Shown piece after piece: positions 39,482 to 54,956 of a stretch of DNA of 64,000 nucleotides. Both the position numbers and the translations under genes were made by a program. The notes under the pieces were generated by a model that worked only from the letters and a program-made list of their open reading frames with translations, had not been told where the DNA came from and made no database searches. Numbering within the stretch: position 1 is the stretch's first letter; every line of letters starts with the position of its first letter. This stretch comes from a virus (Duplodnaviria; Heunggongvirae; Uroviricota; Caudoviricetes), in IMG/VR virus record IMGVR_UViG_3300037510_000012, positions 21,267 through 85,266 of that record; one strand, written 5' to 3'.

Positions 39482-39698
39482 GAAGATGTACTATGTGCTT
39501 ATCAAGCCTGGTGGTAAGCCTCTAAGATATGGTAGAAAGGGTGGTGGCTCATACACCCTTGAGAATAACGCTCGTGGTCAGTATGAACACTTGAAGTCTC
39601 AGGGTTGCAAGGTTGAGCTTTACACTACCGAAGTTGAGTGGAACATGCTAGAGTCCAATGTAAACGAACCAATTGAAGGGCAGGAGCCTCTATGGTAA
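39456..39698 (+). CDS. hypothetical protein
   Basis: ORF track. Confidence 0.45.
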   Translation: MMIMAGLPKKMYYVLIKPGGKPLRYGRKGGGSYTLENNARGQYEHLKSQGCKVELYTTEVEWNMLESNVNEPIEGQEPLW

Positions 39699-40168
39699 CG
39701 TATGTCAAGGGTGATGCAACTAAGCCTCAGGGTGATGGCAGGAAGATTATCGCCCATGTTTGTAATGACGAAGGTGGTTGGGGCGCGGGATTTGTCCTTG
39801 CTGTGGACAAGTTGTCTTCGCAGCCACGAATCAGTTATCGAATGGCTTATGACCACTGGACTAAGGAAGAGGGGTTGACTTTCATCCCACTTGGATGGAC
39901 TCAGCTTGATTATGTTGGCAATAACATTTACGTTGCCAATATGGTTGCTCAGCATCGTACAATCCGTAGTGTTGAGAAGCCAATTTGTTACAAGAGCCTT
40001 GAGGTATGCCTGGAAAAGGTTGCTAAGAGTGCAATTGCTCTTGATGCTACAGTACACATGCCTCGCATCGGATGTGGACTTGCAGGTGGCGACTGGAATG
40101 TGGTAGAGTCAATCATCAACCGAACCCTAACGCTGAGGGATGTTCATGTCACAGTCTACGACCTTTGA
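39692..40168 (+). CDS. macro-domain protein (ADP-ribose / Appr-1''-p processing)
   Basis: VKGDATKP...IIAHVCNDEGGWGAGF and C-terminal RIGCGLAGG resemble MacroD/YmdB GDIT...NAAN..GGGGV and ISTGVYG. Confidence 0.7.
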   Translation: MVTYVKGDATKPQGDGRKIIAHVCNDEGGWGAGFVLAVDKLSSQPRISYRMAYDHWTKEEGLTFIPLGWTQLDYVGNNIYVANMVAQHRTIRSVEKPICYKSLEVCLEKVAKSAIALDATVHMPRIGCGLAGGDWNVVESIINRTLTLRDVHVTVYDL

Positions 40169-40379
40169 GCAGATTCCATTGTTTGACGTTGACGAAATTC
40201 CATGGGGATATTGCTATGACTGCTATCTCAAGGTGGAATTTGACATCAACCACAGACTTCCATGGTGTTCAAATTGCAGCAAGGAAGTTCATTCATATGA
40301 TTGGACAACGACTGCAAAGTTCAAGCCAATTCGTATCTCACCATCACAAGTGTTGAAGTCTAACACTGTACCCTGGTAA
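40140..40379 (+). CDS. zinc-finger protein
   Basis: CYDC...CSNC. Confidence 0.45.
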   Translation: MFMSQSTTFEQIPLFDVDEIPWGYCYDCYLKVEFDINHRLPWCSNCSKEVHSYDWTTTAKFKPIRISPSQVLKSNTVPW

Positions 40380-40444
40380 TCAGGGCGGGGTTCATAAAGA
40401 GCCCCGCAAGCTTCATTGGTTCGAAAACAAAGGAGATATAACCA

Positions 40445-42370
40445 ATGCGACCTAATGCAAATGTGGCTGAACGCAAGGGTGACCTTGGTGGCCAGAAGAT
40501 TGCAATGACGTTCGACCAGAATAGTCTTGCACATCTTATGTCGGTTATGACTGACCTGTATTCTGACCCTGAGCTTGCGGTAATTCGTGAGTACAGCACA
40601 AATGCGTGGGATTCCCACAAGGCTGCTGGGGTTACTCGTCCTATTGAGGTTACGCTCCCTAATGGTCTTTCTCCTTACTTCAAGGTCAAGGATTACGGCC
40701 TTGGTATGGATATTGACGACATTGAGAATATCTATTCTCAGTATGGTGCGTCAACGAAGCGTGACACTGATGACCAGGTTGGTATGCTTGGTCTTGGTTG
40801 TAAGTCTGCGCTGTCTTATACTTCCCAATTCACGCTTATTGCTGTGAAGGATGGAATGAAGTATAATGTAGCTATTAGCCGTACAGAGAATGGCTCCGGA
40901 GTCATGGAGGTTGTTCTTGCAACCGAGACTGACGAAGAGAATGGCGTTGAAATTGTCATTCCGGCTAAGCGTGGTAACAACTTTGCACACAAGGCAAATG
41001 AATTCTACCAGTTCTGGGAGAAGGGCAGTGTGCTTATTGATGGTGAAGAGCCTAAGTACATTTCTGGCCGGGAGGTCAAGAATGGAATTATGATGGTCTC
41101 TGACCTTTCCAAGGATTATCTTATCATGGGTAACGTCGGTTATCCTCTTGATGAGCGTCACCAGATTGGTGAGCGCAATTACTATTCCCGCTATGGCGTA
41201 GTGGCGCGGGTTGACATTGGAGACGTGAACTTTACGCCTTCTCGTGAATCCCTGCATTACACTAAGCGTACTGAGGACACAATCAATCGAATTCGGACTG
41301 AATTCAAGGCGGGTCTCGATGGTATTGTTGAGCGAGACGTTACGGCATGTGCAACTCAGGAAGAGGCTCTTACGACTTACCTTGAGTGGTACAATCTTCT
41401 TGGTGGTGGTTACAGCCGTTACAAGTTCCCTGAGGTTGAGTACCGGGGTAAGAAGGTTCCGATGAACATTCAGCACCCGTTCCTCTCCTACAAGGTGAAC
41501 CACACGCGGTATGCAGTTGATTCACACAACTGGATTGATATTAAGACTGCTCGTGATACCCCCATCATTTATGGGTTCGCTGGTGAAAAGATTAGCGGCC
41601 ATCAGCGTGAGAAGATGCGTACTTGGCGCACGCTCAATGGATTCACTTCTAGCAACATCCTGATTTGTGATGAACTGCCGGATGTTCTTGAAGAGGATTG
41701 GATTCCTGAGAGCAAGGTATATTCTTGGGAGGATGTTAAGACTGCTAAGGTTCCGGGACAGAAGTCTGGTCGTCCTGCTGCTGTTTACGATGTTTACCTT
41801 CCTGGTTCTACTCGTATCAAGCAGGTAAAGGCTGACGAATTCCCTGACGACGTTGAGATTGCCCTTGTGGCTCCGCGAGATGTTCCTAATTTCCGGACCG
41901 TTAAGGCTTTCCTTGAGGAGAAGACGGATGTTATGATTGTTCGACTTCAGCAGTACCGATGGGAAAAGTTCCGCAGGACATATCCTGACGCTAAGGACCT
42001 TACGTCATTCTTCAAGGAGATGTACGAGAGCGCAGTAAAGGGCCTTACCGATGAGGACAAGTTCAACCTTGGCCTTGACTATCGTGTCCGCAATCTGCTA
42101 CAGTCTCTTAATGAGACGGAGATTGAAGACCCGGAACTTGTAAAGGCTATCATTGCTGCAAAGCAGGTCAAGCCTAGTGATACTCTCAAGCGATATGAGG
42201 AAATGAAGGAAACCTATGGTACCTTTAACTTCGCTCGATATGGTCAGGCTGAAATTGACCGGGTTAACCCGCTTGAGCAGTACGTTCTTCTGAAGTACCA
42301 TTACTACGACATGGATGTTACGCACGCTACGGTTTATATCAATGCAGCGTACCACGCTTTCGTAAAGTGA
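40445..42370 (+). CDS. Hsp90/MORC-like GHKL ATPase
   Basis: Bergerat motifs: REYSTNAWDS (Hsp90 ELISNASDA), YGLGMD (DxGxGM), GMLGLG (GxxGxG). Confidence 0.7.
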   Translation: MRPNANVAERKGDLGGQKIAMTFDQNSLAHLMSVMTDLYSDPELAVIREYSTNAWDSHKAAGVTRPIEVTLPNGLSPYFKVKDYGLGMDIDDIENIYSQYGASTKRDTDDQVGMLGLGCKSALSYTSQFTLIAVKDGMKYNVAISRTENGSGVMEVVLATETDEENGVEIVIPAKRGNNFAHKANEFYQFWEKGSVLIDGEEPKYISGREVKNGIMMVSDLSKDYLIMGNVGYPLDERHQIGERNYYSRYGVVARVDIGDVNFTPSRESLHYTKRTEDTINRIRTEFKAGLDGIVERDVTACATQEEALTTYLEWYNLLGGGYSRYKFPEVEYRGKKVPMNIQHPFLSYKVNHTRYAVDSHNWIDIKTARDTPIIYGFAGEKISGHQREKMRTWRTLNGFTSSNILICDELPDVLEEDWIPESKVYSWEDVKTAKVPGQKSGRPAAVYDVYLPGSTRIKQVKADEFPDDVEIALVAPRDVPNFRTVKAFLEEKTDVMIVRLQQYRWEKFRRTYPDAKDLTSFFKEMYESAVKGLTDEDKFNLGLDYRVRNLLQSLNETEIEDPELVKAIIAAKQVKPSDTLKRYEEMKETYGTFNFARYGQAEIDRVNPLEQYVLLKYHYYDMDVTHATVYINAAYHAFVK

Positions 42371-42430
42371 TTGGTCGGCCCCGAAAGGGGCCAAGCTCCG
42401 GAAATGTCTAATATTAGGAGATAAAACAAA

Positions 42431-43438
42431 ATGAAGTATAATCTCGTTCAGGTTGAAGATGGCGGAGAGGCAAACCTTACCGTTGTCCACGATGGAGAGA
42501 TGTATGTGGCCACTGACACTCACCCTAATTTCGAGCGAATTGTCGCGGGTGTTGTCGCCGGAGATGAAAGTGTAGTTGAACTGTTTGATGTTCAGAAGAC
42601 TGCACAGAAGCGATTCGACAGGCTTTCCGAGCGTGTCACTGTTTCAAATGGTAAGGTCTACCTTGATGGTGAAGAGGTTGACAATGCACTTACCCAGCAG
42701 GTTATCAACTTTGTGAATAACGGAGTTGAGGACTTTAAGCCTCTCGTTGCTTTCTTCGAGAAGGTTGAGACTAACCCGAATTCTCACAGCCGAGTTCAGC
42801 TTTACGCTTGGCTTCGTGACCGTAACATTACCCTTACTGAGGATGGAAACTTCATCGCTTACAAGGGTGTGAAGGTCGAGAATGGCGAGTATTTCAGCAT
42901 TTCCACTGGAAAGGCAATTTCCAATGGTGTTGAGTACAATGGTGCAATTCCTAACCCGCTCGGTGCGATTGTTGAGATGCCTCGCTCTGAGGTTCAGCAC
43001 GACCCTAGCGTTGGGTGCCACACCGGTCTCCATGCTGGTACGTGGAATTACGCCAGTGGTTTTGCGCGGGGTGCGGTTCTGACCGTAGAGATTAATCCGC
43101 GTGACGTTGTTTCCGTTCCTACGGACTGTGATGCGCAGAAGTTGCGTGTCTGTCGCTACGTGGTTAAGGACGTGACTGAGACTGAGCTTGACACTCCGGT
43201 CTACAGCACTTACCCTGACCTTGATGGTTACGAGGATGAGGAGTACGACGACTACGGCTACGATTATGACGAGCCGGATGTTGACACAGACGAGCCTGTT
43301 GAGGTAGAGTCTGAGGACAAGGAAGGAACCGAGTCCACCGGTGTTGTAACTGCGGATGTTTCTAGCGCAATTACGTGGCGTCCTGTGGAGTCCACTTGGG
43401 CTCCGGAAGACCCCGATGCACCTTGGAACCGAGTCTAA
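42431..43438 (+). CDS. hypothetical protein with a long acidic C-terminal tail
   Basis: ORF track; follows the GHKL ATPase gene. Confidence 0.55.
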   Translation: MKYNLVQVEDGGEANLTVVHDGEMYVATDTHPNFERIVAGVVAGDESVVELFDVQKTAQKRFDRLSERVTVSNGKVYLDGEEVDNALTQQVINFVNNGVEDFKPLVAFFEKVETNPNSHSRVQLYAWLRDRNITLTEDGNFIAYKGVKVENGEYFSISTGKAISNGVEYNGAIPNPLGAIVEMPRSEVQHDPSVGCHTGLHAGTWNYASGFARGAVLTVEINPRDVVSVPTDCDAQKLRVCRYVVKDVTETELDTPVYSTYPDLDGYEDEEYDDYGYDYDEPDVDTDEPVEVESEDKEGTESTGVVTADVSSAITWRPVESTWAPEDPDAPWNRV

Positions 43439-43479
43439 TCGGTTCGCCCCTTCGGGGGCAAGCTTACTAAGGAGGAACA

Positions 43480-43638
43480 ATGACGGTAGCGGAATTGATT
43501 GCGAAGTTGCAGACGTATCAGAACCAGGATGCTATGGTTAAGGTCTTGGTTGACGACGGATGTGGTTGTTGTTCGAGTGGGGGAACTTACGAGGACATTG
43601 ATGTTGATGTAGTTGATGGAGAAATCCGAATCTCGTGA
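43480..43638 (+). CDS. small hypothetical protein (52 aa)
   Basis: AGGAGGAACAATG after a hairpin-AAGCTT. Confidence 0.4.
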   Translation: MTVAELIAKLQTYQNQDAMVKVLVDDGCGCCSSGGTYEDIDVDVVDGEIRIS

Positions 43639-43685
43639 TACACTAGCCTCTCCGGAGGCAAGCTTCCTAACGAAAGGAGATATTA

Positions 43686-44462
43686 ATGTCCAAGATTATG
43701 ATTCTGGGCGACGTTCACGGTGAGACAAAGTGGCTGGTGAACATGATTAACAAGGCCAGTCGAATGGGCGTCAAGAAGATTCTCCAGGTTGGAGATTTCG
43801 GAATCTGGACTCATGAGGCTGAGGGACACCGGTTCCTTGACCGCGCAAATGAGGAGCTTCGTAAGCATGGCATTAAGCTCTATTTCGTTGGCGGCAATCA
43901 TGAGAACTGGGACCACCTGAATTGGCACGAGAAGAATGGTGCTAAGGACTGGAATGGTCACACATTTATTCGGTCTCACATTCTTTACACTGGTCGGGTG
44001 AATCGCTGGACCTGGGGTGAGAAGGGTGAGGAGAAGGTCTTTCAGGCTGTTGGTGGTGCCTTTTCAATTGACCGGCGTCGGCGGGTTGTTGGAAAGACTC
44101 TCTGGCTTGATGAGGAGATTCCTGACCGGGTTGTTTATGGTCTGGAGAAGGCTGGTCGGAAGTGTGATTACCTTTTCACGCATGATGGTCCTAGCTGTCT
44201 TCCATTCGCAAATCTGAAGCCTGATATCGACTCTGATATGCACCGGCAGAAGATGGACCGAATTGGGCGGGCTACTCGGCCTAATCTTTGGTTCCACGGT
44301 CACTATCACAAGTGGATGGAGTACAGCTTTATGCACCAGGAGGGTTATTCCTTCGTGTATGGGCTTGACCGGGACTATCAGTTCTACTCTTACGCCATTC
44401 TTGATACTGCATCTGGTGACGTTGAGACTGCAACTGGTAAGATTATCGAGCACGGAAACTGA
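43686..44462 (+). CDS. calcineurin-like metallophosphoesterase (lambda-PPase/Pnkp-phosphatase type)
   Basis: GDVHG; GDFG; GGNHE motifs. Confidence 0.75.
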   Translation: MSKIMILGDVHGETKWLVNMINKASRMGVKKILQVGDFGIWTHEAEGHRFLDRANEELRKHGIKLYFVGGNHENWDHLNWHEKNGAKDWNGHTFIRSHILYTGRVNRWTWGEKGEEKVFQAVGGAFSIDRRRRVVGKTLWLDEEIPDRVVYGLEKAGRKCDYLFTHDGPSCLPFANLKPDIDSDMHRQKMDRIGRATRPNLWFHGHYHKWMEYSFMHQEGYSFVYGLDRDYQFYSYAILDTASGDVETATGKIIEHGN

Positions 44463-44548
44463 GATTTGCCATTTGAATAGTTATCCAATACAATGAAATG
44501 TATGGAGGTTAGTCCTCCGATAGATTTTTGAGGAGGTGTACTATTCAA

Positions 44549-44983
44549 ATGGCAAATGAAGAGAAGAACGAGTCACGCATTCTTTCAGCCGATGAGCGCG
44601 CTGCTGCTCTGAAGGAGTCTGACGCTAAGGCTGCAAAGGCAGACTACAAGCCTGTTACGGCTGTTGACGCTGTTGAGCCACACGGCCCACACGGTGTTGA
44701 GGAGGCTGCCGCTAAGCGTGCGAAGGACGCTGGTGTGACTGACCCTGCATTCGTTAATTACGCAGAGGCTCTAGAAAACTACCAGGCTCGTCCAGACGTT
44801 GAGCCACTAGACGAGCGTCGCGCTCGTGAGGGTGGACGTGATTTCCAGGCTGCATCTTTCCGCCGTGAAATTGGTGGAACGGACAACTCTGGAGTTACGA
44901 CTTCTGAGGATGTATCAACCGATTCAGGTGATGACAAGACAGCTAACAAGACTGCTGCTGTCCGTAAGCCTGCTGGTAAGTAA
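44549..44983 (+). CDS. hypothetical acidic Ala-rich protein
   Basis: ATG after GAGGAGG. Confidence 0.5.
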   Translation: MANEEKNESRILSADERAAALKESDAKAAKADYKPVTAVDAVEPHGPHGVEEAAAKRAKDAGVTDPAFVNYAEALENYQARPDVEPLDERRAREGGRDFQAASFRREIGGTDNSGVTTSEDVSTDSGDDKTANKTAAVRKPAGK

Positions 44984-45011
44984 GGTTTATTCTTTGTGGC
45001 GAAACCCGGTG

Positions 45012-45041
45012 TTGACAAAGCACCGGGTTTTTGCTTATACT
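45012..45041 (+). promoter_or_regulatory. promoter TTGACA-N18-TATACT upstream of tRNA-Lys, embedded in a terminator hairpin
   Basis: CCCGGTG-TTGACAAAG-CACCGGGTTTTT hairpin plus TATACT. Confidence 0.5.
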
Positions 45042-45052
45042 ATAACAACAAC

Positions 45053-45125
45053 GATTCCTTAGCTCAGTTGGTAGAGCAGCGGACTTTTAATCCGAAGCGC
45101 GTCAGTTCGAGTCTGACAGGAATCA
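45053..45125 (+). tRNA. tRNA-Lys(TTT)
   Basis: Acceptor GATTCCT/AGGAATC 7/7; loop CTTTTAA; T GTCAG-TTCGAGT-CTGAC. Confidence 0.8.
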
Positions 45126-45195
45126 CTATTGACACTCAGTTGTCAATCATGTTAAGATGTTTGTATAATGCAACTTAAGCGAAAGGTAAGGACTA

Positions 45196-45429
45196 ATGCC
45201 TAATCTCGATTACAAGGCAGCGCACCGATTTGTGCGGGAGCAGCGTCGGAATGGAAATGACGTTCGTTGGGAAGGCTGGGATATGGTATTCTGGAAGCCT
45301 ACTCGACATGGATTCACCAGCATTAACGGAGCGTTCAAGAACGGCCGTTGGGGTGTTGAGTCTCGAATTTCCGTCAATTCTGACGGGGTGTGGATGGTCC
45401 CGAATAAGAATGTCAAGTCTACTCGATGA
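45196..45429 (+). CDS. hypothetical protein
   Basis: ORF track. Confidence 0.4.
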   Translation: MPNLDYKAAHRFVREQRRNGNDVRWEGWDMVFWKPTRHGFTSINGAFKNGRWGVESRISVNSDGVWMVPNKNVKSTR

Positions 45430-45718
45430 ACTAGGACTAGACCCCGAAGATTTCCAGTGGCAAGACTTGGCTCTGTGCTCCAATATGCCAACATCTTTCT
45501 TCTATGATTCGTATGAGTCAGACCAAGAAACGGCAAAGGCAACAGACCAAGTCTGCCTTCATTGTCCAGTAATAAAGCAATGCTTTTTTGCCGGGTCAGA
45601 TGGAGAACACGGAGTTTGGGGTGGGGTTTACTGGAATGGTGCAGGTAAGCCCGATAAGAACAGAAATGCACATAAAACTGAACAGGTTTGGGTTGAAATC
45701 AGGAGCAAGGTCGAATGA
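45410..45718 (+). CDS. whiB: WhiB-like Fe-S transcription factor
   Basis: Four Cys (C..C.....C....C) and the G[VI]WGG motif (GVWGGV) diagnostic of actinobacterial WhiB. Confidence 0.7.
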   Translation: MSSLLDELGLDPEDFQWQDLALCSNMPTSFFYDSYESDQETAKATDQVCLHCPVIKQCFFAGSDGEHGVWGGVYWNGAGKPDKNRNAHKTEQVWVEIRSKVE

Positions 45719-45975
45719 GTCTATATACGAATAACGTACAGAAAATCTTTAAGACCATGAAGGCTCCGTATCCAAATTTCGTCGTGGATATTGTAGAATA
45801 TCATGACTACCTTGCACTGAGAGTTTACAAGGATAATATCGAATCGTTCAGCGACAATCATAAGATTGCACTCGCTGAATATCTCTATCAACTTAGAGAT
45901 GCAATTAGGTCCGAATGTAAATGCCACATTGAAGGAGTCGAAAATGCACCACCGTCTAGAGGAAGACCGCAATAG
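45715..45975 (+). CDS. hypothetical protein
   Basis: ORF track. Confidence 0.45.
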   Translation: MSLYTNNVQKIFKTMKAPYPNFVVDIVEYHDYLALRVYKDNIESFSDNHKIALAEYLYQLRDAIRSECKCHIEGVENAPPSRGRPQ

Positions 45976-46141
45976 TTATCCTCTTATTTACATCATTGAA
46001 GAGCGAGTGTGGGGGTTTCTCGTCCAAGAGAATGCCTACTTTTCCGAAGTGAAGTATAGCATTGGCGGTATTGAATATAATACTTGTCTGGAGAATGATG
46101 AATTCTTTATTCCAGACCAGATTGGATATGAGAAGGGTTAA
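45944..46141 (+). CDS. hypothetical protein
   Basis: Internal ATG 6 nt after GAAGGAG. Confidence 0.4.
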   Translation: MHHRLEEDRNSYPLIYIIEERVWGFLVQENAYFSEVKYSIGGIEYNTCLENDEFFIPDQIGYEKG

Positions 46142-46380
46142 TGAGCCAAGCGGAATGCAGTTCATGCGGGAAGCAGCACAATGACCTGAGAGCATATAAG
46201 TCGAAGTTGCTACTAGGTACAACTTTTCTTATGTGTCCACATTGCCGAGCCGGAAAGATGGAGCCGAGATTTGCCATCATTCTTGCTGGCAGGGCTCAGG
46301 GTGTTGATTCCGTAGTTGAGTATGTCAAGAATAGACGCTATTGCGGCAATGAGATTCTTGCCAAGGAATTGATGGTTTAA
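46141..46380 (+). CDS. zinc-ribbon protein
   Basis: CSSCG...CPHC. Confidence 0.5.
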   Translation: MSQAECSSCGKQHNDLRAYKSKLLLGTTFLMCPHCRAGKMEPRFAIILAGRAQGVDSVVEYVKNRRYCGNEILAKELMV

Positions 46381-46412
46381 CAACTAAAAACGGGCGGGTT
46401 TAGACCCGCTAC

Positions 46413-46484: not shown

Positions 46485-46516
46485 CTTTTGACATTTAAGT
46501 ATACGGAAGTTATACT

Positions 46517-47997: not shown

Positions 47998-47998
47998 C

Positions 47999-48193
47999 AT
48001 GGGACAAAAGGGAAAGACACCAAAGTATCACAGAGGTCAGAGAGTATATTCAAAGACCTGGGGGTGCAATGCTACGGTAGTTGCATCTGATAACACCAGG
48101 TCTTTCCAAACTGTTTTTTACATCATCAGACTTGATGGTGCTAAGCAAGACAGTTACAATATTCCGGAGCACCTACTTGCTCCACCAAGATAA
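47999..48193 (+). CDS. small KOW/SH3-like protein
   Basis: ORF track; starts 2 nt after a tRNA and has no RBS. Confidence 0.35.
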   Translation: MGQKGKTPKYHRGQRVYSKTWGCNATVVASDNTRSFQTVFYIIRLDGAKQDSYNIPEHLLAPPR

Positions 48194-48215
48194 AAACTAT
48201 GGGCTTCGGCCCTAT

Positions 48216-48286
48216 TCCGGTGTAGTCCAATGGTAGGACACCACTTTGCCAAAGTGGTAGCGCGAGTTCGATTCTCGTCACCGGGA
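48216..48286 (+). tRNA. tRNA-Gly(GCC)
   Basis: Anticodon arm CCACT-TTGCCAA-AGTGG; T GCGAG-TTCGATT-CTCGT. Confidence 0.8.
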
Positions 48287-48359
48287 CCATGAACAGGCAC
48301 ACCAGGTAATGCTGCACTGCCTGTCTCTTTTTGTCCGATTAACATAGTTAGGATTACAA

Positions 48360-48878
48360 ATGATTCAGCCTGGTATTCGTGTTCGAGTCCGTGACAACTA
48401 CGCTGGCGGACTTGACAACGTAGTGGGTCGTACTGGTAAGGTTCTTCGTGTCAGTCAGGATGGTCTTTACCTGCTTGACATTAAGGGTCGTCGTAAGGCT
48501 TCTTGGGGTGACTACACCTATGACCGTGAGGTTATTGTCAACGAGTCTGAAATTGAGACTGTAGACTTTGACCTGAAGGATGCCAAGGGTCGTAAGATTG
48601 AGCTTGGCGATGAGGTTGCCTATGGTCCTCTCGGTGGTGGTGTTATCATTGGAACGGTCGTTGACATTGACGAGCGTGAGGGTCGGTATGGTCGAAAGAC
48701 TGTGAAGTTCCGTCTTGAAACTAAGACGAAGGAGTTTTACACTGATGGTGGTGACCGTACGATTAGTGGTGCTAACGTTACTAGCTATCGCTGGTATGAG
48801 CACTCTGGTCGTTGTGTTGTCATCAGTAAGAATCCGATTAATGACAACGTATTTACAATTAAGGTTCCTACTTTCTGA
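48360..48878 (+). CDS. hypothetical protein (tandem SH3/KOW-like)
   Basis: ORF track. Confidence 0.55.
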   Translation: MIQPGIRVRVRDNYAGGLDNVVGRTGKVLRVSQDGLYLLDIKGRRKASWGDYTYDREVIVNESEIETVDFDLKDAKGRKIELGDEVAYGPLGGGVIIGTVVDIDEREGRYGRKTVKFRLETKTKEFYTDGGDRTISGANVTSYRWYEHSGRCVVISKNPINDNVFTIKVPTF

Positions 48879-49069
48879 TGGCTAAGAAGAAGCCGAAGCC
48901 AATTGGCTCAGGCAATTACACTGTTTGTAGAAAGTGCAGAGGCACTGGTCAGACATTCGATATCAAGAAGGCAAACAATCCAAAGGGTCAAGCGATTCTG
49001 TGGATTCCCTGCCCTGATTGTAAGGATGGTACCGGCCAGTCTAGAGGTTGGGTTGACGCAGAGCGTTGA
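48878..49069 (+). CDS. zinc-ribbon protein
   Basis: CRKCRGTG...CPDC. Confidence 0.45.
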   Translation: MAKKKPKPIGSGNYTVCRKCRGTGQTFDIKKANNPKGQAILWIPCPDCKDGTGQSRGWVDAER

Positions 49070-49081
49070 CATGTGTTAAGA
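49053..49081 (+). promoter_or_regulatory. promoter TTGACG-N17-TAAGAT
   Basis: GTGTTAAGATAGATACAT matches the -10 context at 37178. Confidence 0.45.
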
Positions 49082-49137
49082 TAGATACATCGGGTCGGAC
49101 GGTTGACAAATAATCCGACCTAACATACACTTAGAGT

Positions 49138-49587
49138 ATGAAAACGTGCTCTAAGTGTAAGCTTGAAAAGCCTCTTGAGGATTTTCCAAAGAAGGGTTTC
49201 GTAAAGGGTAAGCAAGTTTATCGTTCGGACTGTAAAGATTGTAAGTCCGAATTGGATAAGAAGGTTTATGCCAATACAGACCTAGAAAGACGAAGAATTC
49301 TACAGGCCGAAGCCACTAAGCGAAGGCTTGCTAATAACAGGAAATTGGTGTATGACTACCTGAAGAACCATCCATGTGTAGATTGTGGACAGGACAACAT
49401 CATTGTGCTAGAGTTTGACCACGTAAGAGGTGAGAAGACGCAAAGCATTTCAACAATGGTTGCTAGACATAGACCAGAGTCAGAAATCCTAGAGGAAATT
49501 GAGAAGTGCGATGTTCGATGTGCAAATTGCCATCGTATCGTAACGGCTCAACGTGGTGGTTGGAATGTACTTGACCACCTAGACTGA
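49138..49587 (+). CDS. HNH endonuclease
   Basis: CVDC...H...CANCH. Confidence 0.7.
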   Translation: MKTCSKCKLEKPLEDFPKKGFVKGKQVYRSDCKDCKSELDKKVYANTDLERRRILQAEATKRRLANNRKLVYDYLKNHPCVDCGQDNIIVLEFDHVRGEKTQSISTMVARHRPESEILEEIEKCDVRCANCHRIVTAQRGGWNVLDHLD

Positions 49588-49605
49588 ATGTGTTAAACTT
49601 GAATA

Positions 49606-49712
49606 TATCGGGTCGATTGGATAGGGTTATCTAACAATCAATTGGTGATGAGCCTTCGGGCAACCCTGCGGCGGGTATAGCCGCATCTCCCTTCCTCAAC
49701 ATATCCGATGTA
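49606..49712 (+). ncRNA. structured leader/sRNA unit U7, homologous to U1, immediately upstream of tRNA-Gly
   Basis: Shares TCGGGTCG-TTGGATAGGGTTATCTAAC at the 5' end and AACATATCCGA at the 3' end with the unit at 19857. Confidence 0.35.
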
Positions 49713-49715
49713 TTT

Positions 49716-49788
49716 GCGGGTGTAACTCAATTGGCAGAGTGCTAGCCTTCCAAGCTAGATGTTGCCGGTTCGACCCCGGTCACCCGCT
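49716..49788 (+). tRNA. tRNA-Gly(TCC)
   Basis: Acceptor GCGGGTG/CACCCGC 7/7; anticodon arm CTAGC-CTTCCAA-GCTAG; T GCCGG-TTCGACC-CCGGT. Confidence 0.85.
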
Positions 49789-49795
49789 CGAAACA

Positions 49796-49835
49796 AATGC
49801 CCCGCTGGTAAATAACTGGCGGGGATTTGTTGTTT
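49796..49835 (+). terminator. terminator-like hairpin after tRNA-Gly (same family as 26908)
   Basis: AAATGCCCCGCTGGTAAATAACTGGCGGGGATTT followed by GTTGTTTCT. Confidence 0.45.
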
Positions 49836-49853
49836 CTATGGTAAGATGGAGTC

Positions 49854-50051
49854 ATGGAAGAAATCGTATCCTACAGTTTTGCTGTAGACATTTACAAGAA
49901 TGAGTCTGGAACGTACACTTATGGTGTGTTCCAAGAGATTGAATCTGATGAAGAGGACGAACTACAGTTGCTTGAGTCTGGTGAGACTGATACACTAGCT
50001 GAAGCGGCAGAGGTTGCGGGCCGAAGCATCAAGACACTGTTCACTGTTTGA
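49854..50051 (+). CDS. hypothetical acidic protein
   Basis: ORF track. Confidence 0.45.
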   Translation: MEEIVSYSFAVDIYKNESGTYTYGVFQEIESDEEDELQLLESGETDTLAEAAEVAGRSIKTLFTV

Positions 50052-50071
50052 CTATGGCCCGAAAGGGTCAA

Positions 50072-50143
50072 TCCCCCTTAGTGTAATTGGCAGCACAACG
50101 GATTTTGGTTCCGTTAGTTCGAGTTCGAGTCTCGCCGGGGGAG
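50072..50143 (+). tRNA. tRNA-Gln(TTG)
   Basis: Anticodon arm ACGGA-TTTTGGT-TCCGT; T (T)CGAG-TTCGAGT-CTCG(C); acceptor TCCCCCT/CGGGGGA 6/7. Confidence 0.6.
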
Positions 50144-50164
50144 CTTCCATCGTAAAAAGGAGAA

Positions 50165-50404
50165 ATGATGGTTATTGCAGCAACTGTTATTTGGATTGTC
50201 GGATTTCTCTTCCTCCTGATTTTCGGAGGTGTGGTGATTGTTGATTCAGAGATTCATCATGAAGAGCCTTTCGAACAGTATTATGAGTCATGGGGTGGAG
50301 TCAGATTCTACTCCGTTGTATTCCTTGCGCTGCTCATTGCAACGTCTGTCTGGCCTATCACTCTGCTCACTATCTACATCGTAGCTCTTATTAGGAAGTG
50401 GTAA
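50165..50404 (+). CDS. small membrane protein
   Basis: Two TM helices; RBS AAAGGAGAAATG. Confidence 0.5.
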   Translation: MMVIAATVIWIVGFLFLLIFGGVVIVDSEIHHEEPFEQYYESWGGVRFYSVVFLALLIATSVWPITLLTIYIVALIRKW

Positions 50405-50405
50405 G

Positions 50406-50621
50406 ATGATTTTCCTGTGGATTTATTTGGCCGGGTTGACTGTCTGCATCATTGGTGGTACGGTTACAGCACTGTACGAGAAGCGCAAGTTCGGTGAAGA
50501 CAAGGTATCAGCTACCGCATGGGGTTCTATCGTCCTGTATTCTTTTTGGTGGCCATTCATCATGCTTCTCAATCTTATCTGCCTCCCCTTCGACATTCTT
50601 GAGAAGAGGCGGGGTCAGTAA
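50406..50621 (+). CDS. small membrane protein
   Basis: Two TM helices. Confidence 0.5.
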   Translation: MIFLWIYLAGLTVCIIGGTVTALYEKRKFGEDKVSATAWGSIVLYSFWWPFIMLLNLICLPFDILEKRRGQ

Positions 50622-50627
50622 GATATC

Positions 50628-50648
50628 GGGGGTTCGCCCCCAAGCTTC
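50628..50648 (+). repeat. hairpin-CAAGCTT element, GGTTCG-loop subtype
   Basis: GGGGGTTCGCCCCC-AAGCTT; related copies at 36006-36029, 37495-37519 and 43446-43465. Confidence 0.8.
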
Positions 50649-50668
50649 CATTACAAAAGGAGAAGATA

Positions 50669-51124
50669 ATGGATATTCTGTTCTGGATTTGGGTAGTACC
50701 GGCCGGATTCTTCACTACAATTTTCCTGCTGGTTGCACTATTCGCTTCGTTGATTAACATTCAGACAGGCGCTGTTCTTGGCGGATTGGCAATTGGAATC
50801 TTTGGTCCGCCTGTTGCTGTCGCTCTTGGTGCTCTCTGGCCTGTTACTTGGCCTCTGTTTTCACTTCTTGGTAAGCTGGATGAAAAGCGAACCGAAAAGC
50901 GCAATCAGGAATATGAGAAGCAGCTTGCTAAGGGAAAGAACTATGGCAAGTTGATGAAGATTACCGAGAGCTATCCTCACCTTCCCGATGAGTACCTTGG
51001 TGCTATCGTAAAGGTCATTCAGTGGCATGAGCCTGGCAAGCACAATGCTTACGTTGAGTTTATTGACCAGAAGATTCGCCCTGGTCGATTCTATTGGCGA
51101 CACTCCATGATGGAGGAAGTCTGA
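50669..51124 (+). CDS. membrane protein
   Basis: After hairpin-AAGCTT; RBS AAAGGAGAAG. Confidence 0.55.
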   Translation: MDILFWIWVVPAGFFTTIFLLVALFASLINIQTGAVLGGLAIGIFGPPVAVALGALWPVTWPLFSLLGKLDEKRTEKRNQEYEKQLAKGKNYGKLMKITESYPHLPDEYLGAIVKVIQWHEPGKHNAYVEFIDQKIRPGRFYWRHSMMEEV

Positions 51125-51167
51125 TAGAATGGGACTTCGGTCCCAAGCTTCCCGAAAGGAGATTGTT

Positions 51168-51467
51168 ATGGGATGGGTGTTGGTCGTTGCTATCCTGGCT
51201 GCGCTATGGTACCGTAGCAATTACAAGGGTGCCATGAAGATGTACGAGCATGAGCGTGAACTGAGTAAGCTTGCTAGTGGCGAAAACTACCGTCGTCTGG
51301 TAAGGTTCACTCATAACAACAGGAAGTACGAGGCTCGTATTCGTAGGTGGGATGTTCCTGAGTCAGACGAGAATGTTGCTGAACTTTGGTGCGTTGAAGG
51401 TTCCAATCCTGACGGATGGACACAGTTCTTTCTTTGGGATAAGGATGAACTGAAGTTCGTTGATTGA
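51168..51467 (+). CDS. membrane-anchored protein
   Basis: ATG after GAAAGGAG; the track ORF 51129 begins inside the hairpin motif. Confidence 0.5.
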   Translation: MGWVLVVAILAALWYRSNYKGAMKMYEHERELSKLASGENYRRLVRFTHNNRKYEARIRRWDVPESDENVAELWCVEGSNPDGWTQFFLWDKDELKFVD

Positions 51468-51517
51468 GAATCCGCCCGGTTTCGTAAACGGGCAAGCTTT
51501 AGTAATAAGGAGGAAGT

Positions 51518-51766
51518 ATGACCGCTTGGATTATGGGAATCTATTTCGTTGGTTTCGGCCTCTGTTTCCTGTTTCTGCTTGTTATGGCGGGAGTTGGCAA
51601 TAGTCCTGGCCTTGGCAGTTCACTTGGTTCTGAGGTAGTAACGTTCGTAATGCTCGGTTCCTTTCTGTGGCCTGTGCTTCTTGTAATTTCAATTATGGCT
51701 GGTGGCTGGTATGCCGTCAGGCGACTGCTTGGAAAGGAAAAGAATGGACTTCGTAACACTGCATGA
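51518..51766 (+). CDS. small membrane protein
   Basis: After hairpin-AAGCTT; RBS AAGGAGGAAG. Confidence 0.5.
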   Translation: MTAWIMGIYFVGFGLCFLFLLVMAGVGNSPGLGSSLGSEVVTFVMLGSFLWPVLLVISIMAGGWYAVRRLLGKEKNGLRNTA

Positions 51767-52358
51767 AATGATTCCTCGGGCAACCGGAGATAAACTTCAT
51801 GTGATGGAAATGAAGCCATATCCTAACATTACCCTCGCTATGCCGGGAAGGCATCAGAATGATACCGACCCTGTTGGCGGGGATTTTGTTGTTATGGTAG
51901 ATGATGTAAATATGGGTTGGGTAAAGCATCAGTTTACTCATGGCGACCTTTGGGATGACCTTGAGAGCAAGTTGATTGCCGACCCTATGAGTGCTAAGAT
52001 GCTCATGCGTGATTACGCGATGGTCGTTCGTGGTGCTGCGCCTGAAGACACAGCATGGGACTTTGAGAACGGTTTGGTTCCTGAGGACCTAGATGAGCCT
52101 TGGGACAATACGCTGTTGCCTCAAACGTTTCTGTACGCCGTTCAGTGCCTAGCTGTGGCTGAGCATCGACGCTACTGGAAGCACGAACGAGACGGAGGCG
52201 GAAGGTACTTGCCAGCACGCTTCTCCATGGGTATCATAGAAGGCAGATGGAAGGCAGAAGACGCCAAGGCTTATCAGTATCGTGGTCGTCAAGGGCTTGA
52301 GAATCTGATTAAGGAGAAGGGCCGTCCGACTTCTCTGAAGAAGTTTGCTGAACAGTAA
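51744..52358 (+). CDS. hypothetical protein
   Basis: Internal ATG after GGAAAGGAAAAG. Confidence 0.5.
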   Translation: MDFVTLHEMIPRATGDKLHVMEMKPYPNITLAMPGRHQNDTDPVGGDFVVMVDDVNMGWVKHQFTHGDLWDDLESKLIADPMSAKMLMRDYAMVVRGAAPEDTAWDFENGLVPEDLDEPWDNTLLPQTFLYAVQCLAVAEHRRYWKHERDGGGRYLPARFSMGIIEGRWKAEDAKAYQYRGRQGLENLIKEKGRPTSLKKFAEQ

Positions 52359-52404
52359 ATTTCGTGGGGTTTCGTAAAGAAGCCCCAAGCTGTATACTAG
52401 ACAC

Positions 52405-52674
52405 ATGGATGAAATTTGTGAGGAACTAGCGCACTGGTTTCTAGTGCATGATTACAAGTGGAAGTTTGATTACGGCCATGGCAATCCCGATGAAAAGGAT
52501 ATTGCAGCAGTAATCAAAAAGGCAATGCAACTGCTTAGTGTTGAAGAAACAGATACCAGACTTGAGGTTGGTAGGCTAATCTTCATGAAGAATGCTGAGC
52601 TTGGTCTAGTAGACATTTATGTTCACGCTGGGACTATTGAGGAGAATTCACTAAATGAGGACAGCAACGTTTGA
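52405..52674 (+). CDS. hypothetical protein
   Basis: After hairpin-AAGCTG. Confidence 0.5.
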   Translation: MDEICEELAHWFLVHDYKWKFDYGHGNPDEKDIAAVIKKAMQLLSVEETDTRLEVGRLIFMKNAELGLVDIYVHAGTIEENSLNEDSNV

Positions 52675-53077
52675 CTACACTGAGATGGCCGTAGTTGACA
52701 GCAGCTTTATCGACGCTGTTTACTACAACGACAAGAGCAGTGAGCTTGCCGTTTCAATGCTGAATGGCGACACGCATTTCTATGCGGATGTGCCTGCACG
52801 CGTTTTCTACAGCATGGTTGACGGTTCTTCCGCTGGTGCTGCCTATAACCGAGAGGTTAAGGACCAGTACACAAACATTGCGGGCGGACCTGTTCATGAG
52901 GTACAGTTTGTTGAGCACGAGGTTGGTGTAACCAAGCGCTTCAACGTAAAGGCTGTGGTAGTATTTCAGCAGTGGTTTGACGCTGAATCTGCTGCGGACG
53001 CTGCCAAGCAGATGGAGAAGTACATGGCTCCGAACTATGGCAACGTATCAATCACGGAGGTTAAGGAAGTTGGGTGA
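52655..53077 (+). CDS. hypothetical protein
   Basis: ORF track. Confidence 0.5.
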   Translation: MRTATFDYTEMAVVDSSFIDAVYYNDKSSELAVSMLNGDTHFYADVPARVFYSMVDGSSAGAAYNREVKDQYTNIAGGPVHEVQFVEHEVGVTKRFNVKAVVVFQQWFDAESAADAAKQMEKYMAPNYGNVSITEVKEVG

Positions 53078-53381
53078 GGTTCGTAAGGTCCGTACACTAA
53101 CGGAACTTCACGAAATTATGAACGACAATGATAAGGTCGTTCTTGACTTGGCTGCACCGTCATGGTGTGTTCCTTGTCAGAGGCTTGAGCCTCATTTTAA
53201 GAAGGCTGCTGAAAAGTCGGAGGCTGCGTTCGTTCAGGTAGATATTGAGGATGCCGAACAGGATATTCTCAACACCTATCCGACACAAAGTGTTCCAACG
53301 GTTCTTCTCTTGCAGAAGGGTGAGCCAACTGCTACGCTTAAGGGACGTACTTCGGTAGCACTTCTTAAGGAGATTGGGTAA
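53070..53381 (+). CDS. trx: thioredoxin
   Basis: WCVPC active site about 31 aa from a TTG start that follows GGAGG. Confidence 0.65.
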   Translation: MGEVRKVRTLTELHEIMNDNDKVVLDLAAPSWCVPCQRLEPHFKKAAEKSEAAFVQVDIEDAEQDILNTYPTQSVPTVLLLQKGEPTATLKGRTSVALLKEIG

Positions 53382-53388
53382 ATCTCGC

Positions 53389-53417
53389 GGGGGTTTCGTA
53401 AAGAGACCCCCAAGCTT
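53389..53417 (+). repeat. hairpin-CAAGCTT element, TTTCGTAAAGA-loop subtype
   Basis: GGGGG-TTTCGTAAAGAGA-CCCCC-AAGCTT; similar copies at 52366-52392, 56028-56059, 51474-51499 and 58674-58697. Confidence 0.8.
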
Positions 53418-53432
53418 CTCAACAAAGGAGAA

Positions 53433-53690
53433 ATGATGCTGAGCGATATTGACCTTCCTGAACTTCCTTCTGGATATCGATGGAAGTTTTATAGGAGCAA
53501 GGCAAGTGGGAGCGATATCTTGGCTATCCAGAAGCGCTGGCTTGGTGTTTGGTATAGCGAAGAAATCTCATTCCCTAGTATTTATAAGTCATATGGTGAT
53601 AGTAATGAGAAGGCTATTAAGAAGGCTGCACAGTCAGCTTTCAGACGATTCAATCAGGACTTCTCTCGATACTATGGTACTAAGCCGTAA
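53433..53690 (+). CDS. hypothetical protein
   Basis: After hairpin-AAGCTT; RBS AAAGGAG. Confidence 0.5.
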   Translation: MMLSDIDLPELPSGYRWKFYRSKASGSDILAIQKRWLGVWYSEEISFPSIYKSYGDSNEKAIKKAAQSAFRRFNQDFSRYYGTKP

Positions 53691-53708
53691 TTCTATAAAG
53701 GAGACATA

Positions 53709-53873
53709 GTGGCTAACATTGGTGGTGCTTCCCCTAAGAATCTGATTATGCGGGCAGAGTTGATGATTGATAGCCTGCCTGACTATAATGCAGACCTTAA
53801 GGCTGAAAAGGCTGAGTTGCTTCTTCGTCTTGCTGAGGCTAAGATGGAGTTCCTGAAGCAACCCGAGGAGTAA
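53709..53873 (+). CDS. small hypothetical protein (54 aa)
   Basis: GTG after AAAGGAG. Confidence 0.4.
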   Translation: MANIGGASPKNLIMRAELMIDSLPDYNADLKAEKAELLLRLAEAKMEFLKQPEE

Positions 53874-53932
53874 CACAATGGGCCGAAAGGCCCAAGCTTT
53901 CCTACTAACATACACAGAAAAGGAATAGGAAA

Positions 53933-54169
53933 ATGACTAACATTACCCCTGAGCAGGAGCAGCAGAGCCGCGATTTCGTTAAGGTTGCTGCGCTTGCAGC
54001 GGTTCACATTCAGGCAGTGAATGAGGCCGTGAAGTTGGGTGACATGGACCTTCTTCAGGGAAGCCTTGACTTCGGTAACGAGGTTTCCACCACGATTCTT
54101 TCTCAGATTCCTGAGGAGATTCGTATGGAGGTTCTGCTTGAGCTGCTTGGTTCCGCTCTGAGCATCTGA
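53933..54169 (+). CDS. hypothetical protein
   Basis: After hairpin-AAGCTT. Confidence 0.5.
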   Translation: MTNITPEQEQQSRDFVKVAALAAVHIQAVNEAVKLGDMDLLQGSLDFGNEVSTTILSQIPEEIRMEVLLELLGSALSI

Positions 54170-54183
54170 TATTGCAGTACAAT

Positions 54184-54214
54184 TGGGCTAGGGGAGAAAT
54201 CCCCTAGCCTTTTT
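54184..54214 (+). terminator. rho-independent terminator
   Basis: GGGCTAGGGGAGAAATCCCCTAGCC followed by TTTTTG. Confidence 0.75.
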
Positions 54215-54232
54215 GTATTGGAGGAAGCTTGT

Positions 54233-54457
54233 ATGTCCATTGAGAGATGGGAAAATGAAGGAGGATTTATCCAGATGACTCATTCATATTTTGACAGAAT
54301 GGGTTTTGAGGAAACACACGAAGGCAGTCAGACAGACTGTCCAACCAAGCAGTGTCGTAAGGAACGCGCCTACTACCGCAGGATTCCAGCGATGGACCCG
54401 TGGCCTGATGGTTCCGGGCCATACGGCACCGACCCATGGATGCAGGAGGGTATCTAA
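54233..54457 (+). CDS. hypothetical protein
   Basis: Internal ATG after GGAGG; follows the terminator at 54184-54214. Confidence 0.5.
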   Translation: MSIERWENEGGFIQMTHSYFDRMGFEETHEGSQTDCPTKQCRKERAYYRRIPAMDPWPDGSGPYGTDPWMQEGI

Positions 54458-54461
54458 ACAA

Positions 54462-54956
54462 ATGCACGTCGTACCAAAATTTGAAGGTGACCACTTCTTC
54501 CTGTCTAACTTTTACGAGGCTCCCATACGTTTTGTGATGGGTGATGAGATGGTGGTCATGGCTACTGGGGAGCACGCTTTCCAGGCTGCCAAGGGCAACG
54601 CCATCCTTGACAAGGCAGAGAAGATGAGATACGTTCTTTCTGTTGCCGATGCCCCAACACCTGCCAAGGCAAAGTACCTTGGTCGTTCAGTCAAGATAGA
54701 CCTTGACTGGTGGGAACGCATCAAGGTAGACTGTATGCGCGAAATTGTATTCCAGAAGTTTTTGCAGAACCCTGAGCTGAGAGTTAAGCTCTTGAATACA
54801 GGTGATGCTATGCTTGTGGAAGGAAATACCTGGGATGATAAATTCTGGGGGCGAGTAGATGGCAAGGGCTATAATAAGCTTGGTGTCATTTTGATGGAAG
54901 TGCGCGGATACTGGTATTGGCAGACACGTAGAAACAATCCGGAGATGGGGTCATGA
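54462..54956 (+). CDS. NADAR/YbiA-family protein (ADP-ribose N-glycosidase superfamily)
   Basis: FFLSNFY...EHAFQAAK and WGRVDGKGYNKLGVILMEVR match E. coli YbiA FSNFA...EHYFQAQK and WGDGGHGKGKNRLGYLLMELR. Confidence 0.75.
   Translation: MHVVPKFEGDHFFLSNFYEAPIRFVMGDEMVVMATGEHAFQAAKGNAILDKAEKMRYVLSVADAPTPAKAKYLGRSVKIDLDWWERIKVDCMREIVFQKFLQNPELRVKLLNTGDAMLVEGNTWDDKFWGRVDGKGYNKLGVILMEVRGYWYWQTRRNNPEMGS

Follow-up and report, generated by a model that had tools for sequence, protein, structure and literature searches.

Two stand-alone candidate erasers of base ADP-ribosylation, a macrodomain and a YbiA-type NADAR protein, in an uncultured Streptomyces phage

Introduction

The removal of ADP-ribose from nucleic-acid bases is documented for proteins of the macrodomain and NADAR folds, and we analysed one gene of each kind in a 64,000-nucleotide stretch of viral DNA (positions 21,267 to 85,266 of IMG/VR record IMGVR_UViG_3300037510_000012; the whole stretch is hereafter called the window) belonging to an uncultured Gilsonvirus-like virulent siphovirus (Stanwilliamsviridae), a Streptomyces phage. 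The closest described relatives of the macrodomain are S. coelicolor SCO6735 and B. thetaiotaomicron BT1257, which form a subclass of ALC1-like macrodomains defined by Hlousek-Kasun et al. (PMC9411070). SCO6735 strips DarT-made thymidine-ADP-ribose (T-ADPr) off DNA faster than DarG or TARG1, and E. coli is rescued from DarT by it (PMC9411070). The activity requires Gln85, which replaces the catalytic Lys of TARG1/DarG and whose mutation abolishes activity; additionally, a model was proposed in which the Val25 backbone retains the catalytic water and DNA is clamped by a basic mobile loop, five residues longer than that of TARG1/DarG (PMC9411070). Uridine-ADP-ribose (U-ADPr) on RNA is also removed by SCO6735 (PMC13036486).

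Regarding the second fold, every NADAR family tested, the YbiA type included, removes guanosine-ADP-ribose (G-ADPr) from DNA and RNA (PMC11125620, PMC11543638, PMC11833690, PMC12945103), and YbiA-type NADARs also remove cytidine-ADP-ribose (C-ADPr; PMC11125620, PMC11833690, PMC12945103). The families are distinguished by a residue in the last strand, which is Asp in DarG1/BC4488 and His in the T4 gp30.3 type (PMC11125620), and the ADP-ribose contacts of Phytophthora PnNADAR are E43, K50, R79, W89, R93, E125, D130, and W133 (Schuller et al., PMC11543638). Both folds have precedents in phages: DarTG1 is defeated by T4 AdfN and by the unrelated NADARs from Bas32 and Bas60 (PMC11257639), and PhiKZ defeats DarTG2 with its macrodomain AdfM (PMC13309987). 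As for the bacteria, the systems enriched in Actinobacteria include DarTG (PMC10482375). DarTG2 is present in many Streptomyces, and only Actinomycetes have the transferases ScARP and Scabin (PMC12945103), whose targets are guanine and cytidine of DNA, RNA, and tRNA. Macro and NADAR domains co-occur in DNA viruses above chance, and the sirtuin and Macro pair of phage Moab has been predicted to be a type II toxin–antitoxin system (Iyer et al. 2022, PMC9503650). In what follows, fold, subclass, active-site residues, and lineage conservation come from our analysis; the activities of homologues and the Streptomyces transferases are taken from the literature.

The Macrodomain Gene

The first gene, named a macro domain in the original prediction, was assigned as follows:

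39692..40168, plus strand: stand-alone macrodomain of 158 aa, SCO6735/BT1257 subclass of the ALC1/TARG1/DarG-like class (phmmer, AlphaFold2, Foldseek)

The open reading frame (ORF) has an ATG start with AGGAG 8 nt upstream. Its match to Pfam Macro (PF01661) was weak (E = 0.0039, 17.6 bits, under the 22-bit gathering score), and because this match alone is sub-threshold, the assignment was settled by phmmer searches against the PDB together with structure prediction. The phmmer matches were led by BT1257 (2fg1/2afc, E = 2.5e-41) and SCO6735 (5e3b, E = 7.7e-39) and also included the ALC1/CHD1L macrodomain (E about 3e-15), TARG1 (about 2e-6), and Poa1p, the last over the N-terminal 35 residues only (E = 3e-6). 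An AlphaFold2 model calculated from 36 homologues had a predicted local distance difference test score (pLDDT) of 92.4, and Foldseek placed it at template modelling (TM) scores of 0.85–0.90 to 2fg1/5e3b, followed by ALC1, TARG1, DarG, and Poa1p at about 0.75–0.8.

When residues were counted through the phmmer alignment, V23, Q87, and G127 (the last in the PRIGCGLAGG loop) corresponded to SCO6735 Val25, Gln85, and Gly126. Gln87 stands where TARG1 (K84) and DarG (K80) have the catalytic Lys, which is a trait of the SCO6735/BT1257 subclass. Residues Q87, N25, D26, G127, and G129 and the PRIGCGLAGG phosphate loop were invariant among the 36 homologues, which comprise phage and cellular proteins with identities down to 49%. 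The extended basic mobile loop, QHRTIRSVEKPICY, contains the basic residues R89, R92, and K96 and is one residue shorter than in SCO6735 and two shorter than in BT1257; the pLDDT falls to 76 at this block, which fits a flexible loop. By its active-site residues the protein looks catalytically intact, and it is predicted to be a thymidine/uridine-ADP-ribose glycohydrolase.

Weak full-length homologues (about 25–32% identity) were present in 831 phage records, including T4-like phages and many other myoviruses. In the T4-like phages, the macrodomain homologue adjoins the gene for the valyl-tRNA synthetase modifier, and the NADAR AdfN is present as well, so that large phages commonly possess both erasers.

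The NADAR Gene

The second gene had been described as a YbiA/NADAR protein that closely parallels E. coli YbiA. We obtained the following assignment:

54462..54956, plus strand: stand-alone NADAR protein of 164 aa, YbiA type, without N-terminal extension (Pfam, PDB, AlphaFold2)

Pfam PF08719 matched residues 10–148 of the 164 (E = 2.3e-25, 90.2 bits, cut-off 35.1), the best PDB sequence match was YbiA (2b3w, E = 3.4e-13), with PnNADAR (8bau) at E = 2.9e-7, and the AlphaFold2 model (pLDDT 94) gave TM scores of 0.74–0.75 to 2b3w and 8bau. The family assignment thus stands. The close parallel with YbiA is correct in substance, as the motifs align, but generous at 33% identity overall, and the motif quoted for it (FSNFA...EHYFQAQK) is that of E. 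coli YbiA itself; the phage versions are LSNFY...GEHAFQAAK and WGRVDGKGYNKLGVILMEVR. The ORF has an ATG start with AGGAGG 12 nt upstream, and this start at 54462 is favoured over an upstream in-frame TTG at 54291 by the existence of 164-aa homologues.

Seven of the eight listed PnNADAR contacts could be mapped onto the phage protein from the PDB alignment, with E37, K44, R75, W84, E120, D126, and W129 corresponding to PnNADAR E43, K50, R79, W89, E125, D130, and W133. Across 32 homologues, E37, K44, W84, E120, and D126 were invariant, and R75 and W129 were conserved in at least 90%. Taken over both proteins, the active-site residues stay conserved in homologues with identities as low as 45–50%. 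In the last strand, the phage LVE120G aligns with LVEH of YbiA and so provides a Glu. This Glu and the lack of an N-terminal extension place the phage protein in the YbiA family. Among NCBIfam models, the best match was TIGR02464, a riboflavin-intermediate N-glycosidase, at 72.1 bits against a cut-off of 73.7. Judged from its active site, this protein also looks catalytically intact, and it is predicted to be a glycohydrolase of guanosine-ADP-ribose and possibly cytidine-ADP-ribose.

Comparison with Described Systems

The phage macrodomain resembles SCO6735 (5E3B) and BT1257 (2FG1) in sequence, being 45–47% identical over the full length (45% to SCO6735), as well as in the TM scores given above, in consisting of a single stand-alone domain, and in having the Gln for Lys replacement, the Val25 equivalent, PRIGCGLAGG, and most of the mobile loop. 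Unlike these proteins, it is encoded by a phage, its mobile loop is one to two residues shorter, and its gene lacks the RecA-NDp/DNA-damage promoter context and adjoins Sir2 in sister phages. AdfM (PhiKZ gp104) also stands alone, is encoded by a phage, and falls in the broader DarG/TARG1-like class of macrodomains; its job, T-ADPr removal from phage DNA, is the one proposed here for the window protein. However, AdfM is DarG2-like, its activity is lowered by mutation of a conserved active-site Asn (N23A), and it is imported into a phage nucleus, a structure that this siphovirus lineage does not have. We rejected a grouping with AdfM because the similarity was remote and confined to the phosphate-loop region (pairwise blastp E = 0.02, 21% identity over a gapped 109 columns). 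An identity as a DarG2 antitoxin was also rejected: DarG2 is encoded beside darT, binds DarT through a C-terminal domain, and has Lys80 as its catalytic residue, whereas the phage protein has Gln at the Lys80 position, is a single 158-aa domain, and has no transferase nearby. Its score against the NCBIfam model antitoxin_DarG was 20.7 bits (cut-off 250), and the PADLOC DarG model matched 37 residues only (E = 2.4e-5).

Similarly, the phage NADAR shares with AdfN (T4 gp30.3), Bas32, and Bas60 the stand-alone organization and the idea of an orphan eraser, and E37 and K44 of its E..FQ..K motif correspond to AdfN E36 and K43. It differs from AdfN in the YbiA-family Glu of the last strand, where the T4 type has His, and belongs to a different clade; the host is also different, being an actinomycete, and in this group ScARP and Scabin are the guanine/cytidine ADP-ribosyltransferases known so far. 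The candidates DarG1 and T4-type AdfN were rejected on the basis of Glu instead of Asp or His, the lack of an N-terminal DNA-binding extension, and the lack of an adjacent transferase. With E. coli YbiA (2B3W), in addition to the identity given above, the protein has in common a bare core without extension and the last-strand Glu. In contrast to YbiA/TIGR02464 proteins, it is phage-borne and neither fused nor linked to ribA/ribD or a LexA operon. YbiA itself hydrolyses G-ADPr and C-ADPr in vitro, and for this reason membership in the YbiA family leaves the substrate unsettled.

Two sirtuin-containing systems were also considered. The macrodomain in the window is an orthologue (about 71% identity) of the Moab Macro protein and occupies the same locus, from the small upstream ORF to rIIA; the sirtuin of the Moab pair is absent from the window, where the macrodomain start overlaps the 80-aa upstream ORF instead. 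Cellular SirTM–macrodomain operons differ in that the phage macrodomain is ALC1-like, not MacroD-type, and in that the phage Sir2 resembles deacylase-type sirtuins.

Sir2 Next to the Macrodomain in Sister Phages

Three genera are represented by Comrade, Faust, and Annadreamy, and in each of these phages a canonical Sir2 gene of 225–227 aa is situated directly upstream of the macrodomain gene and abuts or overlaps the macrodomain start. Sir2 lies between the small upstream ORF and the macrodomain gene in these phages as well as in Moab and others. The elements of this arrangement are listed below, with the Sir2 genes given in coordinates of the examined locus sequences:

Comrade, 3507-4190: Sir2 gene
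Faust, 996-1676: Sir2 gene
Annadreamy, 882-1559: Sir2 gene
Window, 39456..39698, plus strand: small ORF of 80 aa without a family, overlapping the macrodomain start by 7 nt and conserved in sister phages
Window, 39686..39700, plus strand: Sir2 insertion junction at which Sir2 is cleanly absent (DNA alignment with Comrade)

The phage Sir2 matched Pfam PF02146 (E = 1.9e-36), contains the GAGIS, HG, and Zn-Cys motifs, and is nearest to deacylases of the Af-Sir2/CobB/SIRT5 type. It was found in 14 Streptomyces phage records from three genera, 13–14 of which also carry the macrodomain. Sir2 is missing from about two thirds of the macrodomain-bearing records (24/38), in which the macrodomain is intact and its active site conserved. 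In the DNA alignment, CTCTATGGTAA was present at the junction between the upstream ORF and the next gene in the window and in Comrade alike, no Sir2 remnant was visible at the window junction, and the 7-nt ATGGTAA, with which both the Sir2 and the macrodomain genes start, bounded a clean indel. Across the three genera, Sir2 was 84–86% identical, compared with 59–68% for the macrodomain, 46–52% for rIIA, 58–69% for rIIB, and 46–83% for the neighbours overall; the 80-aa upstream ORF of the window was 53–62% identical to its Comrade, Faust, and Annadreamy homologues. Conservation of Sir2 above its neighbours suggests strong constraint or recent exchange.

Linkage, Spread, and Neighbourhood of the Two Genes

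The span 39692–54956 given in the original prediction, roughly 15 kb, is not a single feature and contains about 35 unrelated genes and 7 tRNAs between the two genes, including rIIA, rIIB, a metallophosphoesterase, WhiB, thioredoxin, and small ORFs; the genes lie 14.3 kb apart, do not form an operon, and are not a linked pair. Both belong to the non-structural half of the genome, the one for tRNAs and host takeover. Their phyletic spread also differs, since tblastn retrieved the macrodomain from 38 records of Streptomyces phages, which all seem to be Loccivirinae, and the NADAR from 126, including the macrodomain-less Tomas, NootNoot, and Jay2Jay group. In Jada (MZ820094), the NADAR gene is lost along with a number of small genes (region 1813–2643 of the examined locus sequence), and a 26-residue C-terminal remnant adjoins a LAGLIDADG homing endonuclease. 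Forrest (MZ820093) may be another phage that naturally lacks the NADAR: it has the macrodomain, but no full-length NADAR was listed for it in the search.

Directly downstream of the macrodomain gene, rIIA, rIIB, and the metallophosphoesterase occupy 40445..44462:

40140..40379, plus strand: small zinc-ribbon ORF (CxxC...CxxC) between the macrodomain and rIIA, 53% identical to Faust gp158
40445-42370, plus strand: rIIA-like (Pfam HATPase_c_3; synteny with annotated Francob and Comrade)
42431-43438, plus strand: rIIB-like (synteny with annotated Francob and Comrade)
43686-44462, plus strand: metallophosphoesterase (Pfam Metallophos), part of an RNA-handling set

At the position of the zinc-ribbon ORF, the gap in Francob is shorter, and no gene is annotated there. 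Promoters and terminators were scanned by consensus matches only and provide weak context. The strongest terminator-like site was at 38626-38643 (7/7 G-C pairs), with a weaker one after the phosphoesterase at 44503-44519. From the macrodomain to rIIA, rIIB, and the phosphoesterase, no G+C-rich-stem terminator comparable to that at 38626 was found, the weak matches there all being inside coding sequence. Pfam scans of 30 window ORFs (60–641 aa, most of the smallest ORFs falling outside the scan) revealed no transferase partner or NAD-salvage gene, and the only nucleotidyltransferase among them was a generic cytidylyltransferase-like protein beside two glycosyltransferases. The annotation of the Francob right arm, in which most genes are hypothetical, contained no ADP-ribosyltransferase, Nudix, or KptA gene.

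A Possible Role in Counter-Defence

At slightly better than even chances, in our estimate, the phage carries two independent single-domain erasers of base-linked ADP-ribose that would aid its replication against an ADP-ribosylating host defence. In the macrodomain, Gln87 would position the distal ribose, the Val23 backbone would hold the attacking water, and single-stranded nucleic acid would be clamped by the long basic loop; the bond cleaved would be the N3-thymidine (or uridine)-ADP-ribose linkage that DarT2-type toxins create. In the NADAR, Glu37, Lys44, and Glu120 would surround the distal ribose, and the enzyme would cleave N2-guanosine-ADP-ribose, possibly also cytidine-ADP-ribose, produced by DarT1-type or pierisin-like (ScARP/Scabin) transferases. 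Once such adducts were erased from replicating phage DNA, replication and packaging could continue in hosts whose ADP-ribosylating defence had fired. We infer both that the in vivo substrates are base-ADPr adducts and that the benefit is counter-defence. Two observations on gene context favour this role: the macrodomain gene is directly upstream of the rIIA/rIIB genes, which are of the anti-exclusion type, without a strong terminator-like site between them, and among the window ORFs scanned no transferase accompanies either the macrodomain or the NADAR. The concept itself has already been published for other phages (AdfN, AdfM), and the present proteins represent a different branch that plausibly does the same job.

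Several observations weigh against such a role. The two genes are unlinked and spread differently (38 versus 126 records), the similarity of the macrodomain to AdfM is remote, and its pairing with Sir2 in 13–14 of 38 records suggests an internal partner and not a host enzyme. Jada and, by search results, Forrest are viable on S. viridochromogenes without a full-length NADAR, which shows dispensability on that host only. Within NCBIfam, the NADAR comes closest to the model for riboflavin-intermediate N-glycosidases, with a score just under the cut-off. Moreover, E. coli YbiA and the T4 NADAR did not rescue DarT1 toxicity (PMC11125620), and in vitro G-ADPr activity of a NADAR is therefore no predictor of protection in vivo. 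The counter-defence role put forward in the original prediction is partly supported and plausible on biochemical and ecological grounds. It has its basis in the folds, the catalytic residues, the base-ADPr activity of relatives, the AdfN and AdfM precedents, and the DarTG2 and ScARP of Streptomyces, and is complicated by the unlinked genes, the Sir2 neighbour, and the NADAR-less isolates.

A more specific division of labour, which we consider distinctly improbable, is that the macrodomain answers DarT2 and the YbiA-type NADAR answers ScARP/Scabin rather than DarT1, mirroring the two eraser systems of the host genus. If true, ScARP-type enzymes, now seen as secreted toxins or developmental regulators, would also restrict phages in Streptomyces, and this large tRNA-rich phage family would need the NADAR to shield its DNA or tRNAs.

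Alternative Explanations

For the macrodomain, the strongest rival is that it represents the eraser half of a phage sirtuin–Macro module from which Sir2 was lost in the window, leaving an orphan with a residual or new role. In such a module, Sir2 would ADP-ribosylate a target, or deacylate it and release O-acetyl-ADP-ribose, and the macrodomain would reverse or clear the product. Macrodomains of the TARG1/OARD1 class deacetylate O-acetyl-ADP-ribose. The canonical Sir2 abutting or overlapping the macrodomain in Comrade, Faust, and Annadreamy, the 13–14 records with both genes, the clean ATGGTAA-bounded indel, the position of Sir2 as the most conserved gene of its neighbourhood, and the toxin–antitoxin prediction for Moab (PMC9503650) all speak for it. 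However, the 24 records with an intact macrodomain and no Sir2, about two thirds of the total, imply that selection can act on the macrodomain independently of Sir2. In addition, the phage Sir2 is deacylase-like, with no feature seen that points to ADP-ribosyltransferase activity, SCO6735-type macrodomains have a documented activity on nucleic-acid bases, and the NADAR is left unexplained. We hold this explanation to be unlikely, and we give the same low credence to one example of an orphan role, immunity to Sir2-bearing relatives during co-infection.

Other explanations apply to both proteins. They could degrade soluble ADP-ribose-derived signals, such as the cyclic ADP-ribose isomers of TIR/Thoeris systems or other NAD-derived messengers or toxins, and so blunt host signalling. 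This follows the reading of Iyer et al. 2022 (PMC9503650) and is consistent with two small stand-alone enzymes in an early-type region, but phage NADARs and a phage macrodomain were later shown to act on ADP-ribosylated DNA in vivo (PMC11257639, PMC13309987), and the macrodomain keeps most of the long basic loop proposed as the SCO6735 DNA clamp (PMC9411070). We regard degradation of soluble signals as very unlikely. No anti-Thoeris enzyme is known to have a macro or NADAR fold. The original prediction had itself offered tRNA splicing or NAD metabolism as alternatives. Here, the macrodomain would serve as an ADP-ribose-1''-phosphate phosphatase after ligation by the Tpt1/KptA pathway, and the NADAR would act on by-products or riboflavin intermediates. 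The region does contain 31 tRNAs, a transfer-messenger RNA (tmRNA), the metallophosphoesterase, and the remainder of the RNA-handling set:

22048-23664: Ro60/TROVE protein with a von Willebrand factor A (vWA) domain
34932-35999: Rnl1-like RNA ligase
36289-36717: polynucleotide kinase
56077-56727: Rnl2-like RNA ligase

Poa1p is a structural neighbour of the macrodomain (TM about 0.75), and the near-threshold TIGR02464 match of the NADAR points in the same direction. On the other side, a tblastn search of all phage records with KptA found 98 records, none from Streptomyces phages; the query was the E. coli sequence, validated by matches annotated as kptA/RNA 2'-phosphotransferase. The kinase, Rnl1, and phosphoesterase set of the phage corresponds to the T4 Pnk/Rnl1-type pathway. 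That pathway makes ordinary 3'-5' junctions, with no 2'-phosphate. In addition, the macrodomain is far nearer to SCO6735 than to Poa1p, which matched only its N-terminus, and no riboflavin or NAD-salvage genes were present among the ORFs scanned. The ADP-ribose-1''-phosphate/tRNA-splicing reading is thus weak; for the NAD-metabolism alternative, no gene supports it among the scanned ORFs, and a riboflavin N-glycosidase role for the NADAR, compatible as it may be with the sequence, has no contextual support. We give RNA repair or NAD housekeeping very little credence.

Implications and Public Annotation

If the counter-defence role were confirmed, it would extend the orphan-antitoxin type of counter-defence (AdfN, AdfM), so far seen in E. 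coli and Pseudomonas phages, to actinophages. It would also help, from the phage side, to identify the DNA/RNA ADP-ribosyltransferases with an immune function in Streptomyces, where ADP-ribosylation enzymes are unusually numerous. Material for comparison is available, as the NADAR is present in Gilson and Francob and not in Jada or, by search results, Forrest, and Sir2 is found beside the macrodomain in Comrade and Moab and not in Gilson or Francob. In public records, the macrodomain appears as hypothetical or under the names ADP-ribosyltransferase, phosphatase, and hydrolase; entries for the NADAR read glycosylase or hypothetical, and the Faust Sir2 is labelled ADP-ribosyltransferase. The macrodomain and NADAR assignments correct this annotation. 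Inconsistently annotated records include:

PP537961: Francob gp167
NC_070783: Faust gp156/gp157
NC_048742: Gilson gp168
several glycosylase entries

Phage and Genomic Setting

The long ORFs of the window are all on the plus strand, and its contents include replication genes in addition to the tRNAs and tmRNA. A megablast search with 39000-55500 retrieved 57 phage records, 55 of which are Streptomyces phages of about 126–131 kb; Francob was the best match, with 84.5% identity across 90% of the query, and the relatives belong to Stanwilliamsviridae, Loccivirinae, Gilsonvirus. An identical macrodomain protein is on record in metagenome assemblies only (JGI 3300037474, Logan SRR12692787, and a 129-kb contig). 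The Gilsonvirus relatives and the restriction of the exact macrodomain to metagenome assemblies are the reasons for describing the source as an uncultured Gilsonvirus-like virulent siphovirus.

The 31 tRNA genes and the tmRNA (30501-30780, tag ANSMNASAFALAA) are interspersed with small ORFs between 17856 and 50144. The segment 10391-13982 contains two glycosyltransferases according to the Francob annotation (without a Pfam match here), the cytidylyltransferase-like protein (PF01467), an exonuclease, a deoxynucleoside monophosphate kinase, and an NT5C-type phosphatase, and may represent a module for modifying nucleotides or DNA; modification of the phage DNA, if present, would be relevant to its sensitivity to DarT-type enzymes. 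The phage also carries copies of Streptomyces developmental and nucleoid regulators, namely WhiB-like, SsgA-like, and Lsr2-like proteins, together with DUF932 and vWA–TerF-like proteins:

26965-27768: vWA–TerF-like protein
45230-45718, 58083-58463, 59394-59969, and 60065-61087: WhiB-like, SsgA-like, Lsr2-like, and DUF932 proteins

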